Positions 26,459-30,082 of a stretch of DNA of 32,000 nucleotides are shown in pieces. How positions within the stretch are numbered: the first letter of the stretch is position 1; each line of letters opens with the position of its first letter. The stretch is from Streptomyces sp. NPDC020096 (lineage in GTDB: Bacteria; Actinomycetota; Actinomycetes; Streptomycetales; Streptomycetaceae): assembly GCA_040631425.1 (NCBI GenBank), contig JBEYJY010000009.1:129802-161801 (forward strand), given 5' to 3'. The notes beneath the pieces were generated by a model. The model had not been told where the DNA came from, did no database searches, and saw only the letters and a list, made by a program, of their open reading frames with translations. Position numbers and translations under genes: made by a program.

Positions 26459-28594
26459 ATGAACGAGCGTCATGACAGCATAGCCATCGTGGGGATGGGG
26501 CCTCGCGGCCTGAGCGTCTTCCTGCGTCTGTGCGCCAACCTGTCCCGGCGTCCCGGACGACCACCCATCACGTTGCATCTGGTGGACCCCTACCCGCCGG
26601 GCCCGGGCCGGATCTGGCGTTTGGATCAGCCCGGGTGCCTGCTGATGAACACCGTGGCCTCCCAAGTCACCGTGTATCCCGACGAATCCGTTGAGATGGC
26701 GGGGCCCCTCGTCACCGGACCCAGTCTGTGGGAGTGGGCACAGGCTGCCGTCGCCTTGCCAGCTGCTGTCCCGCTGGATGAGGGGTTCCTGCAGGAGGCG
26801 CGTCTGCTGGACGCCGATGCGTACCCCAGTCGGCGGCTCTACGGCGCATACCTGAGCTGGGCCTTCCGGGATGCGATGTCGTCGGCGCCGCGCTCCCTGA
26901 ACGTCACCGTCCATGCAACCCGCGCCCTGCGGCTCGACGGTGAGGGCCGTAAAACCGCTTCGGACTCGCCGGAGCAGCGACTGACACTGGAGAACGGGAC
27001 CGTACTGGGCGGCCTGAGGATGGTCGTCCTCACCCAGGGACACACCCCAGTGGCTCTGAGCGCCGCGGAGCGCGCACGGGCCGGATTCGCCGAGCGCACC
27101 CGTCTTACCTATCTTCCCCCGGGCAACCCGGCCGACGCCGACCTGTCCGGGATCACCGCCGGGGAAGCGGTTATCCTCTCCGGCCTTGGCCTGTGCTTCT
27201 TCGACTACATGGCGCTGTTGACCACGGGCCGCGGCGGCCGCTTCCAGCGGCGTGACGGCCAGTTGACCTACGTGCCGTCCGGACATGAACCTCGGATGAT
27301 CTGCGGATCGCGCCGCGGTATCCCCTACGTGGCCCGCGGGCGCAATGAGAAGGGCCCGTGCGGTCGACACGAGCCACAGGTGCTCACGGCTGCGCTCGCC
27401 GAGCGGCTCCGCGGCGCAGACGGAACGTCCCGGCGACTCGACTTCAGAGGCGAGATATGGCCCCTCATCGCCAAGGAGGCGGAGACCGTCTACTACACGC
27501 GCCTGGTGGCGCGACGCGCGTCCGAAGCGGTGGCGGAGCAGTTCTGCCGCCGCTACCTGCCGACGCCCTGGCGCAGCAGGGAGGAGGAGACCGTGCGGGC
27601 CGCGTTCGACATCGCGCCTGATGAGACCTGGGACTGGGAGAAGGCGGCGTTCCCGCACCGCGACTACACGTTCACCGACACCGCCGACTTCCGCGGCTGG
27701 CTGCTGGACTACCTTGCTGCCGACATTGCGCAGGCCCGCGGCGGAAACCTCGGCGATCCGACCAAGGCCGCGCTGGACGTGCTGCGCGATCTGCGTAACG
27801 AGGTCCGGCTGGCCATCGACCACGGAGGGTTGTCCACCCGCTCACACGCCGAGGACCTCGACGGGTGGTTCACCCCACTCAATGCCTTTCTGTCCATCGG
27901 GCCGCCGGTCCAGCGGATCGAAGAGATGGCGGCCCTGATCCGCGCCCGCCTCCTGGAGCCGGTCGGCCCCGCCGACACCATTGACTGCTGTGAGACGCAC
28001 GACACGTTCACGATCCACTCGCCCGCCGTGCCTGGCTCCTTGCGCAGGGCCACTGCCCTGATCGAGGCGCGCCTGCCCAAACCGGACGTCCGGCGCACCA
28101 CTGATCCGCTCCTCGGACACCTCCTGCAGACGCAGCAGGGCACCTCGTATCGGATCCGTGACGCAGACGGCAGCACGTACGACACCGGGGGCCTGCAAGT
28201 CGCGTGCAGGCCCTACCAGTTGGTGACGCATCACGGGCACCGGCATCCCGGTGTGCTCGCCTTCGGTGTCCCGACGGAAGGCGTCCACTGGGGCACTGCC
28301 GCCGGGGCGCGGCCAGGCGTGAACTCGGTGTCCCTGGCGGACGCGGATGCCGTCGCGCGCGCGGTGCTCTCCTGCCTGGGGCGCAACCCGCGCGCCCCGG
28401 CCACCGGGACAGGGCTTCCCAGCCGCCACCCTCCCTCCGGTCACGCCCCGGCGGCCACGCCCCACGGCATGGTCAGACCGGCGGTCCGTCCGATGGCGTG
28501 GACCGCCAACCTGCCCGAGGCGCCCCTCGGGTTCAGCGGTGGAACACCGCCCTCCACGGAACCCGATCCCTGCGCCGCACCAGGCGATAGGTGA
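26459..28594 (+). CDS. Large FAD/NAD(P)-binding protein (PF13454-like); candidate CreE-type aspartate N-oxygenase, 711 aa
   Basis: The ATG follows GGAGGAGAG. The N-terminal dinucleotide fold is IAIVGMGPRGLSVFLRL...HLVDP.PPGPGRIW. It lies immediately upstream (12-nt gap with AGGAG) of a fumarate-lyase-family gene. The last ~80 aa are a Pro/Ala/Gly-rich tail. The functional call is by context and unverified. Confidence 0.75.
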   Translation: MNERHDSIAIVGMGPRGLSVFLRLCANLSRRPGRPPITLHLVDPYPPGPGRIWRLDQPGCLLMNTVASQVTVYPDESVEMAGPLVTGPSLWEWAQAAVALPAAVPLDEGFLQEARLLDADAYPSRRLYGAYLSWAFRDAMSSAPRSLNVTVHATRALRLDGEGRKTASDSPEQRLTLENGTVLGGLRMVVLTQGHTPVALSAAERARAGFAERTRLTYLPPGNPADADLSGITAGEAVILSGLGLCFFDYMALLTTGRGGRFQRRDGQLTYVPSGHEPRMICGSRRGIPYVARGRNEKGPCGRHEPQVLTAALAERLRGADGTSRRLDFRGEIWPLIAKEAETVYYTRLVARRASEAVAEQFCRRYLPTPWRSREEETVRAAFDIAPDETWDWEKAAFPHRDYTFTDTADFRGWLLDYLAADIAQARGGNLGDPTKAALDVLRDLRNEVRLAIDHGGLSTRSHAEDLDGWFTPLNAFLSIGPPVQRIEEMAALIRARLLEPVGPADTIDCCETHDTFTIHSPAVPGSLRRATALIEARLPKPDVRRTTDPLLGHLLQTQQGTSYRIRDADGSTYDTGGLQVACRPYQLVTHHGHRHPGVLAFGVPTEGVHWGTAAGARPGVNSVSLADADAVARAVLSCLGRNPRAPATGTGLPSRHPPSGHAPAATPHGMVRPAVRPMAWTANLPEAPLGFSGGTPPSTEPDPCAAPGDR

Positions 28595-28606
28595 CAGGAG
28601 TGCACG

Positions 28607-30082
28607 ATGTTCTCAACCCTCCCGCCAACGAGCGGCGACCCTCGCCGCAACAGAGCCGCAGCAGCACGAGACACCGCCGAGGACAGCGGCCTGTTGACGC
28701 CCGTACGGGCGTCAACACCGATCGAGGCGGCAGTATCGGATACCGCCTGGCTCCAGGCGATGCTGGATGCCGAGGCGGCCCTGGCCCGTGCCCAGGCCCG
28801 CCTGGGCACGGTACCGGAGTCGGCCGCTGCCGCGATCACGGTTGCTGCGCGTGCGGACGCCCTGGACCTGCATGACCTCGCGCGGCGCGCCCGCGCGGCG
28901 GCCAATCCGGTGGTCCCGTTGGTGAAAGACCTGGCGGTCGCCGTGCATGCGGCGAGCCCCTCGGCGACCCAGTTCGTTCACCTGGGCTCCACAAGCCAGG
29001 ACATCCTGGACACCGCCGCCATGCTGGTGTCGGCTCGCGGCATCGCGTTGATCCTGCGGGACCTGGACCGGGCAGCAGACAGTGTGGCAGTGCTTGCCGG
29101 CCGTCATCGCGACGACCTCATGGCCGGCCGGACCCTCACCCAGCACGCAACACCCATCACCTTCGGCCTGAAGGCCGCCGGTTGGCTCCTGGGTCTCCTG
29201 GAGGCCCGCCAGCGGTTGGACGCGGTCATGCGCACCCGTCTGCCCGTCCAGCTGGGCGGCGCCGCCGGAACCATGGCCGGCTACCTTGAGTGCGCCCAAG
29301 ACGGCGCGGGCGCTGCGGCACTGCCCGCGCACTACGCACGGGATCTGACCGAGGCCTTCGCCTGGGAGCTCGGCCTGCCGGCGCCCCTGCTGCCCTGGCA
29401 CACCCGCCGTACCCCGATGGCCGACCTCGCCCACGCCCTCAGTGTGACCTCCGGATCCCTCGGCAAAATCGCCACGGATGTGCTCAGCCTGGCCCGTACC
29501 GAGACCGCAGAGATCAACGAGCCAGGCGATCCTGGCCACGGAGCCTCCTCGACCATGCCGCAGAAACGCAACCCGGTCCTGGCCACCCTCATCCGGACGG
29601 CTTCCCTGCAGGTACCGCCTCTGGTCACGATCTTGCTGCAGAGTATGGCGGCGGAAGACGAGCGCCCGGCCGGTGCCTGGCACGCGGAGTGGATGCCTCT
29701 GCGTGAATGCCTCCGCCTTGTCGGCGGCGCGGCTCACACCGCTACCGATCTCTGCGCACGCATGAGTGTCGACCCGGCCCGGATGCGCAGCAATCTGGAG
29801 TCGACCGGCGCACTGATGACCACCGAGCGCCTCGTCCACGCCCTGCGTGCACGCTTCCCGGACCGCTCGGCCAAGTCGGCCATCGCCCAGGCATGCCACA
29901 CCGCCCTGACAGAACACCGCCCCCTGGTCGATGTCCTCTTGGACGTCCCCCAGATCCGGGCAGGGTTCTCCGCCGACGACATCGATGACCTGCTCGACCC
30001 CTCTCGCTACCGGGGAGCCTCCGCCGATCTCGTGGATCGCGCCCTCGATCACTACGCCGAACAACGCAACCACAGCGACTGA
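28607..30082 (+). CDS. Fumarate-lyase-superfamily enzyme (PcaB/adenylosuccinate-lyase-like); candidate CreD-type nitrosuccinate lyase, 491 aa
   Basis: Motifs are SDTAWLQAMLDAEAALARAQ, HLGSTSQDILDTA, GRTLTQHATPITFG, and the signature GASSTMPQKRNP. Confidence 0.85.
   Translation: MFSTLPPTSGDPRRNRAAAARDTAEDSGLLTPVRASTPIEAAVSDTAWLQAMLDAEAALARAQARLGTVPESAAAAITVAARADALDLHDLARRARAAANPVVPLVKDLAVAVHAASPSATQFVHLGSTSQDILDTAAMLVSARGIALILRDLDRAADSVAVLAGRHRDDLMAGRTLTQHATPITFGLKAAGWLLGLLEARQRLDAVMRTRLPVQLGGAAGTMAGYLECAQDGAGAAALPAHYARDLTEAFAWELGLPAPLLPWHTRRTPMADLAHALSVTSGSLGKIATDVLSLARTETAEINEPGDPGHGASSTMPQKRNPVLATLIRTASLQVPPLVTILLQSMAAEDERPAGAWHAEWMPLRECLRLVGGAAHTATDLCARMSVDPARMRSNLESTGALMTTERLVHALRARFPDRSAKSAIAQACHTALTEHRPLVDVLLDVPQIRAGFSADDIDDLLDPSRYRGASADLVDRALDHYAEQRNHSD

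Follow-up and report, generated by a model that had tools for sequence, protein, structure and literature searches.

A split counterpart of the SpiED fusion: a probable aspartate-nitrosuccinate gene pair in a spinamycin-type cluster of Streptomyces sp. NPDC020096

In the aspartate-nitrosuccinate (ANS) pathway, which has been established for years and serves as a standard handle for genome mining, CreE converts L-aspartate to nitrosuccinate and CreD converts nitrosuccinate to nitrite and fumarate; the two genes are normally neighbours. Here we analysed a pair of adjacent genes at positions 26459-30082 of a 32,000-nucleotide stretch of DNA from Streptomyces sp. NPDC020096 (assembly GCA_040631425.1, contig JBEYJY010000009.1; hereafter the window, to whose numbering all positions refer). 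The initial annotation, made from the letters of the window, had proposed that the pair supplies nitrite to the surrounding gene cluster. Our analysis indicates that the pair very probably constitutes the ANS pathway of a spinamycin-type aryl-polyene cluster and that it would feed nitrite to a diazotase of the AvaA6/SpiA7 type.

The closest described system is the spi cluster of Streptomyces albospinus, the producer of spinamycin. According to the review PMC11705231, this cluster was found by mining for ANS genes and holds the diazotase SpiA7 together with SpiED, a natural CreE-CreD fusion that is called surprising there and that supplies nitrite to SpiA7. For the first enzyme of the pathway, the reference is the L-aspartate N-hydroxylase of Streptomyces sp. 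V2 (SpV2; structures 8CP2 and 8CP5), a class B flavin monooxygenase that acts only on L-aspartate and has a catalytic asparagine (Asn62) and a cluster of arginines in its entry chamber (PMC10404684). For the second enzyme, the motif SSxMPxKRNP has been proposed as a signature of nitrating lyases, and the position of Leu170 is occupied by His in non-nitrating lyases (PMC13411527). The ava/cma clusters provide a reference for gene order, which is A1, acyl carrier protein (ACP), A4, A5, A6, B, A7, E, D (PMC10777205).

Orthology with SpiED and the identity of the two enzymes

The closest relatives of the pair in a scan of representative genomes were found in Streptomyces sp. NBC_00133 (L001) and S. 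albospinus JCM 3399 (L002). Positions 16466-32000 of the window are collinear with the former at 92.8% nucleotide identity and with the latter at 87%; the spi locus itself aligned with positions 16855-31518 at 87-88% nucleotide identity in two blocks, and the same orthologous genes flank the pair over about 15 kb. Identity with SpiED amounts to about 88% for the monooxygenase part of the pair and to about 86% for the lyase part. On account of this collinearity with the S. albospinus spi locus, the window is an orthologue of the characterised spi cluster, for which the study that is cited in review for SpiED is reportedly that of Kawai et al. (ACS Chem Biol 2023). The evidence computed here consists of homology, residue conservation, synteny, the anatomy of the junction and purifying selection on both enzyme bodies, from which we infer the activities of the two enzymes and the flow of nitrite to the diazotase.

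The upstream gene encodes a 711-residue protein that begins MNERHDSIAIVGMGPRG and has the N-terminal dinucleotide-binding motif IAIVGMGPRG that had been recognised in the initial annotation. It matched the PF13454 domain (E = 7e-38) and is deposited in GenBank as 'FAD/NAD(P)-binding protein' (MEU1626452.1). The start position is kept among the relatives, being ATG in the window, ATG in NBC_00133 and TTG in S. albospinus. The sole match in the PDB was 8CP2 (E = 5e-183, 55% identity, residues 7-641, 595 aligned positions). Ten of the 11 substrate and catalytic residues of 8CP2 are kept (R16, N64, R293, R303, R443, R446, N447, R450, R618 and R634 in the window protein). The nine core residues in SpV2 numbering (R13, N62, R266, R276, R409, R412, N413, R416 and R577) are all among those retained and are invariant in 81 homologues, and the peripheral R593 is kept as well. 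The two enzymes thus have Asn62 and the entry-chamber arginine cluster in common, whereas the extension past the crystallised core is 16 residues in SpV2 and 70 residues here. The N-hydroxylase gene is under purifying selection (omega 0.21-0.26 against NBC_00133 and S. albospinus).

The downstream gene encodes a 491-residue enzyme in which, consistent with the fumarate-lyase signature noted before, Lyase_1 (E = 5e-34) and ADSL_C were detected with Pfam; its GenBank entry is MEU1626453.1, 'adenylosuccinate lyase family protein'. The best NCBIfam model was NF052556 'nitrosuccinate lyase' (622.3 bits), which led the next model by 216 bits. Neither of the PcaB models was passed (NF006554, 406 bits with a cutoff of 595; TIGR02426, 352.8 bits with a cutoff of 355.75), nor was the PurB model TIGR00928 (188.6 bits with a cutoff of 326.2). 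The best match in the PDB was CreD 5XNY (E = 6e-137, 56% identity), and PcaB followed with E = 1e-87 and a score 160 bits lower. All 15 residues of ScCreD that have been tested by mutagenesis are kept, and conservation in ScCreD numbering covers the fingerprint E49/H118/D125/H253/R341, the catalytic S302/K308/N310 and Leu170, the last of which corresponds to Leu177 in the window lyase. The catalytic loop GASSTMPQKRNP reads SSTMPQKRNP at the signature position, and the gene is under purifying selection (omega 0.29-0.34). Profile hidden Markov models and best matches therefore place the lyase with the nitrosuccinate lyases (NF052556, CreD) and the flavoprotein with a proven aspartate N-hydroxylase (8CP2), and not with PcaB, PurB or unrelated PF13454 proteins.

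These family matches and active-site residues, together with the orthology to SpiED and the presence of a diazotase-type gene in the same operon-like array, support the earlier proposal of nitrite supply. By homology, the 711-residue flavoenzyme would use flavin adenine dinucleotide (FAD) and NADPH to oxidise L-aspartate stepwise at its amino group, giving nitrosuccinate, and the 491-residue lyase would eliminate nitrous acid from the nitrosuccinate by beta-elimination, leaving fumarate. The nitrite may then be used with ATP by the AvaA6/SpiA7-type diazotase to diazotise an aminophenyl polyene at its aromatic amine, starting the formation of the N-N bond, and downstream steps may lead to a hydrazide, as in spinamycin. 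The aminophenyl polyene would be assembled by the ligase, ACP, ketosynthase and chain length factor (CLF) block of the cluster, with an aromatic starter probably made with the help of a 3-deoxy-D-arabino-heptulosonate 7-phosphate (DAHP) synthase and an aminotransferase.

The two genes of the window lie on the same strand with a gap of 12 nucleotides, an arrangement that is informative because such a lyase neighbour was present at only 21 of 80 homologue loci, 19 of these 21 ANS-type loci being unfused. At the other 59 loci, which carry a homologue about 50% identical to the N-hydroxylase, no gene of the fumarate-lyase family was found within 10 kb (for 52 of the 59, the sequence extended 3 kb or more to either side), and even at these lyase-less loci (among L003-L080) none of the nine core residues for aspartate binding and catalysis varies. 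The neighbours differ between such loci: L014:9971-12052 is surrounded by TetR, DoxX, VTT-domain and PhoD-like proteins and does not look biosynthetic, and L003:10001-11968 has an AurF-like N-oxygenase, an acyl-CoA dehydrogenase and a DAHP synthase nearby. A second homologue of the monooxygenase (650 residues, 55% identical) is encoded elsewhere in the NPDC020096 genome, and a second nitrosuccinate-forming locus is possible.

The junction between the genes and the C-terminal tail

The arrangement described in the initial annotation, with a 12-nucleotide gap and an AGGAG ribosome-binding site, was recovered exactly; it had passed without remark that both open reading frames (ORFs) are in one reading frame, with only TGA and four codons between them. 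The junction reads GAT AGG TGA CAG GAG TGC ACG ATG in the window, GAC ATG TGA CAG GAG TGC ACG ATG in NBC_00133 and GAC ATG CGA CAG GAG TGC ACG ATG in S. albospinus. A single T/C difference thus decides between two genes and one fusion, and AGGAG-N6-ATG is present in all three. In S. albospinus, the fused single ORF is 1268-1275 residues long, whereas the genes are separate in NBC_00133 and in the window, and a separate 491-residue lyase is also present in three other strains. SpiED is therefore like the window pair in its flanking genes and internal AGGAG-ATG, and unlike it in being one ORF with CGA; the window has two ORFs with TGA and a spacer that is 62 codons shorter and parts of which are read in a different frame. 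We propose that the lyase is translated from its own AGGAG-ATG signal.

No terminator-like site was found between the two ORFs. A candidate RNA hairpin or terminator in the tail (CCCGAGG-CGCC-CCTCGGG) was rejected, as the fold of 28470-28625 was no better than that of shuffled sequences (z = -1.06), and the change in its stem in S. albospinus is not compensatory. The fold and terminator checks of the junction gave no sign of regulated read-through or RNA structure. A sequencing error at the TGA is unlikely, as NBC_00133 has the same TGA and two genes are annotated in GenBank.

A second natural fusion of monooxygenase and lyase was observed in Streptomyces sp. NBC_00158 (L052:10001-13321; 1106 residues with a linker of about 20 residues). 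Its lineage is only about 52% identical to the window protein, indicating that the fusions arose at least twice, independently.

The Pro/Ala/Gly-rich C-terminal tail that had been reported for the oxygenase was confirmed, but not its extent of about 80 residues (28350-28591): homology to characterised enzymes runs to residue 641 (nucleotide 28381), which leaves 70 residues. The GC content by codon position was 0.73/0.76/0.80 in the tail, compared with 0.71/0.54/0.84 in the enzyme body and 0.76/0.76/0.73 in a genuine intergenic spacer. Relative to the window, NBC_00133 has an 83-nucleotide deletion that shifts the frame, and its monooxygenase ends 46 nucleotides before the lyase start; S. albospinus has about 186 extra nucleotides and a 1-nucleotide indel that switches the frame within the linker. 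The tail was covered by none of the best 120 homologues listed from a large protein collection. In 78 unfused homologues, the median extension past the equivalent of residue 641 was 22 residues, and only two extensions were longer than the 70 residues of the window. The C-terminal end of the SpV2 enzyme is short and disordered, and its removal costs the enzyme no activity (PMC10404684). Because of the flat codon-position GC, the frame-shifting indels, the lack of coverage among the listed homologues, the short extensions elsewhere and the removable end of SpV2, the tail is probably stop-free spacer DNA translated as a disordered, dispensable and unconstrained run-on without function, and the same spacer would be the SpiED linker in S. 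albospinus. The role of the tail, which had been left unclear, is thus largely explained by its SpiED-linker position and by the lack of any sign of sequence constraint.

Cluster context

The window is high in GC, and the biosynthetic gene array lies entirely on the plus strand (Table 1). The diazotase gene stands at the A6 position of the ava/cma order; its best model was NF058622 '3-aminoavenalumate diazotase' (437 bits), and the next family reached 160 bits. The segment 18493-22094 is a type II polyketide synthase (PKS) block of the highly reducing kind as judged from the predicted functions of its genes (ligase, ACP, ketosynthase and CLF-like partner). The window resembles the ava/cma clusters in the order of ligase A1, ACP, ketosynthase A4, CLF A5, diazotase A6 and hypothetical B, followed by E and D. 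It differs from them in that the window ORFs scanned include no genes for GriH/GriI-type synthesis of 3-amino-4-hydroxybenzoic acid (3,4-AHBA) but instead encode a DAHP synthase and a class III aminotransferase, and in having an Rv2466c-like protein in the place of AvaA7 and an extra UbiD/UbiX pair. With the cremeomycin system of Streptomyces cremeus (CreE/CreD; 5XNY, 5XNZ), the locus has in common the gene order of monooxygenase followed by lyase, whereas cremeomycin depends on 3,4-AHBA and a CreM-type diazotase in place of the AvaA6-type diazotase, type II PKS block and DAHP synthase found here.

Table 1. Predicted genes and sequence features in the window
Feature	Position	Strand	Basis or remark
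SARP (Streptomyces antibiotic regulatory protein) regulator	12026-13567	+	
FabG-type ketoreductase	15316-16284	+	
UbiX flavin prenyltransferase and BagN/FevL-like UbiD decarboxylase	16286-18436	+	
Aryl-ACP-type ligase	18493-19926	+	Pfam, NCBIfam
ACP	19982-20299	+	DSL motif
Ketosynthase	20296-21522	+	Pfam, NCBIfam
Short CLF-like partner	~21405-22094	+	Pfam, NCBIfam, ava/cma gene table (PMC10777205)
AvaA6/SpiA7-type ATP-dependent diazotase, probable nitrite consumer	22091-23686	+	NF058622; AMP-ligase-like; four genes upstream of the pair
205-residue protein, AvaB slot	23720-24337	+	No Pfam or NCBIfam match
Rv2466c-like thiol reductase (mycothiol-dependent nitroreductase family), AvaA7 slot	24334-25044	+	
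Divergent class II DAHP synthase	25074-26333	+	PF01474, E = 2e-122 in two Pfam pieces; TIGR01358, 369 bits (cutoff 615)
Ribosome-binding site GGAGGAG before ATG 26459	26450-26456	+	Read from sequence
CreE/SpiE-type FAD/NADPH-dependent L-aspartate N-hydroxylase (nitrosuccinate synthase), predicted	26459-28594	+	711 residues; catalytic body 26459-28381
Dinucleotide-binding motif IAIVGMGPRG (GxGxxG)	26480-26509	+	Sequence and alignment; includes R16, equivalent to Asp-binding Arg13 of 8CP2
70-residue Pro/Ala/Gly-rich C-terminal tail, positional equivalent of the SpiED interdomain linker	28382-28591	+	Pro 23%, Ala 16%, Gly 11%
TGA stop in frame with the lyase ORF, the single codon between split genes and a SpiED-like fusion (CGA in S. 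albospinus)	28592-28594	+	Junction alignment
AGGAG, ribosome-binding site of the lyase gene, 6 nt upstream of its ATG	28596-28600	+	Kept in split and fused relatives
CreD/SpiD-type nitrosuccinate lyase, predicted to release nitrite and fumarate	28607-30082	+	491 residues; Lyase_1, ADSL_C, NF052556, CreD 5XNY
SS-loop GASSTMPQKRNP with catalytic Ser314, Lys320 and Asn322	29540-29575	+	Fits nitrating-enzyme consensus SSxMPxKRNP
Class III (glutamate-1-semialdehyde (GSA)-aminomutase-like) aminotransferase	30121-31530	+	PF00202; NF000818, 357 bits; likely true start ATG 30205

Some of the neighbouring genes can be given tentative roles. The best fit for the UbiD protein is BagN/FevL, known from the biosynthesis of bagremycin and ferroverdin (665 bits with a cutoff of 1000), and the ava/cma gene table lists no counterpart for it; the UbiX/UbiD pair suggests a decarboxylation of the aryl-acrylate or polyenoate type. 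The Rv2466c-like reductase beside the diazotase is, as a matter of speculation, a candidate for the reduction of a diazonium to a hydrazine. The DAHP synthase, which is short and divergent, probably feeds a shikimate-derived aromatic starter, and since its orthologue in S. albospinus has 391 residues, translation in the window probably begins not at 25074 but further downstream, near 25158. The aminotransferase, whose orthologue in NBC_00133 has 441 residues and starts MNAITPR, may be the aminobenzoate-forming enzyme. Between the LuxR regulator and ketoreductase genes, an ORF on the minus strand (14683-15447) matched IS4-family transposases (E = 2e-29), but in their N-terminal domain only. About 150 nucleotides of this ORF overlap the LuxR ORF, and it could be what remains of an insertion sequence within the cluster.

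Alternative readings and implications

Some observations weigh against the assignment of the pair to a spinamycin-type ANS pathway with a functionless tail. The diazotase score of 437 bits is below the equivalog cutoff of NF058622 (975). The peripheral aspartate contact Arg597 of 8CP2 is Ser638 in the flavoenzyme, at a position that is variable across the family. The case for an unconstrained tail is compositional and comparative and covers only three genomes, and a comparison of substitution rates in the tail gave an omega of 0.39 over 99 nucleotides (33 codons), a sample too small to use, so that the case relies on codon-position GC, the frame-shifting indels and the overall divergence. Finally, the lyase scored below the equivalog cutoff of NF052556, which is 650 bits. 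However, the lyase domain of SpiED scored 600 bits with this model and eight CreE-linked lyases scored 599-779 bits, each more than 200 bits above the PcaB models, and five of the nine lyases tested were below the cutoff (the window lyase and four of the eight comparison proteins). Since the characterised SpiED lyase domain itself scores 600, the cutoff is conservative and excludes part of the genuine family; a score below it is normal for this clade and is no evidence against membership. The pcaB model TIGR02426 gave 349-362 bits with CreE-linked lyases, and the L052:11894-13318 domain passes it. With scores that are low for NF052556 and near the cutoff for TIGR02426, automatic labels of PcaB or generic lyase are to be expected, which explains the frequent 'PcaB-like' names.

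The alternative that the lyase is a true PcaB or adenylosuccinate lyase, lying by coincidence beside an unrelated PF13454 oxygenase, is effectively refuted. PcaB (e.g. PDB 1RE5) does belong to the same aspartase/fumarase superfamily as the nearest relative outside the ANS enzymes, it has the Glu/His dyad and the equivalent of Arg341 in common with CreD (PMC13411527), the TIGR02426 score falls just under its cutoff, and the GenBank label names the adenylosuccinate lyase family. However, PcaB lies 160-215 bits below CreD and the nitrosuccinate-lyase model, no PcaB or PurB model comes within 200 bits of this model, and the partner flavoenzyme keeps the aspartate-binding arginine cluster in a pair that is orthologous to SpiED. 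The window ORFs scanned contained neither pca nor purine genes, so that the initial annotation was right both about this context and in considering ordinary PcaB and PurB roles unlikely. It is also quite improbable that nitrosuccinate is made mainly for a nitro product of the 3-nitropropionate type, or that the nitrite has another use such as an aromatic amination of the nybomycin type. Nitrosuccinate decarboxylates spontaneously to 3-nitropropionate (PMC10404684), but the window encodes a lyase of the CreD type whose active site is intact. In the nyb, daq and stn clusters, ANS genes are accompanied by genes for an AMP-ligase and for a PhzC-like DAHP synthase (PMC12836137), and a DAHP synthase is directly upstream of the pair; nitrite-dependent amination of this type was nevertheless rejected, because the AMP-ligase of the window is of the AvaA6 type, the ORFs scanned included no genes of the PhzE, PhzD, SRPBCC (NybN) or NybC type, and the synteny is with spi and not with nyb.

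Other alternatives accept the ANS pathway and concern the junction. The split could be a disabling nonsense mutation (CGA to TGA) in an ancestral fusion of the SpiED type, which would leave the lyase poorly expressed and the pathway impaired or decaying; the single T/C difference and the ORFs that are still in frame would fit this, and with three genomes only, parsimony cannot fix the direction of the change. We regard this as very unlikely, since AGGAG-N6-ATG is preserved as a signal for restart, purifying selection acts on the lyase, NBC_00133 shares the TGA, three more strains have a separate lyase, and the predominance of unfused ANS-type loci indicates that the split is the usual functional state. 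Occasional read-through of the TGA, by which some SpiED-like fusion would be made along with the free enzymes, is still harder to credit. TGA followed by C is a weak termination context, as known from work on E. coli, the ORFs are in frame with one such codon between them, and natural fusions occur in two lineages. However, the in-frame arrangement is not conserved, since the upstream ORF of NBC_00133 is in a different frame and stops earlier; no outstanding RNA structure was detected at the junction; and an in-frame arrangement has a chance of one in three anyway and follows from shared ancestry with the fusion. A long shot is that the window strain, NBC_00133 and S. albospinus represent a natural series from split genes with a short tail, through split genes in frame with a long open spacer, to the fusion, the last two states differing by one T/C change plus indels, and that the junction is an evolving channelling device rather than a neutral spacer. 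If so, fusion or low-level read-through of TGA-C would channel unstable nitrosuccinate to the lyase and shift the partition between nitrite and 3-nitropropionate.

The assignment of the pair to the ANS pathway adds nothing conceptually new, as this pathway is already well established and an orthologous cluster has already been characterised. The new points are modest: the locus holds a split form of SpiED, so that the 'surprising' fusion and the usual two-gene arrangement are a single point mutation apart; the tail has an explanation; and the cutoff of NF052556 misses the whole clade, the characterised SpiED included, while the PcaB model TIGR02426 nearly captures it. Both proteins have generic labels in GenBank; the names that can be given to them with confidence are aspartate N-hydroxylase for the first and nitrosuccinate lyase for the second, in a spinamycin-type cluster predicted to form an N-N bond. 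As far as the identity of the final product can be inferred from its genes, strain NPDC020096 may produce spinamycin or one of its close analogues.

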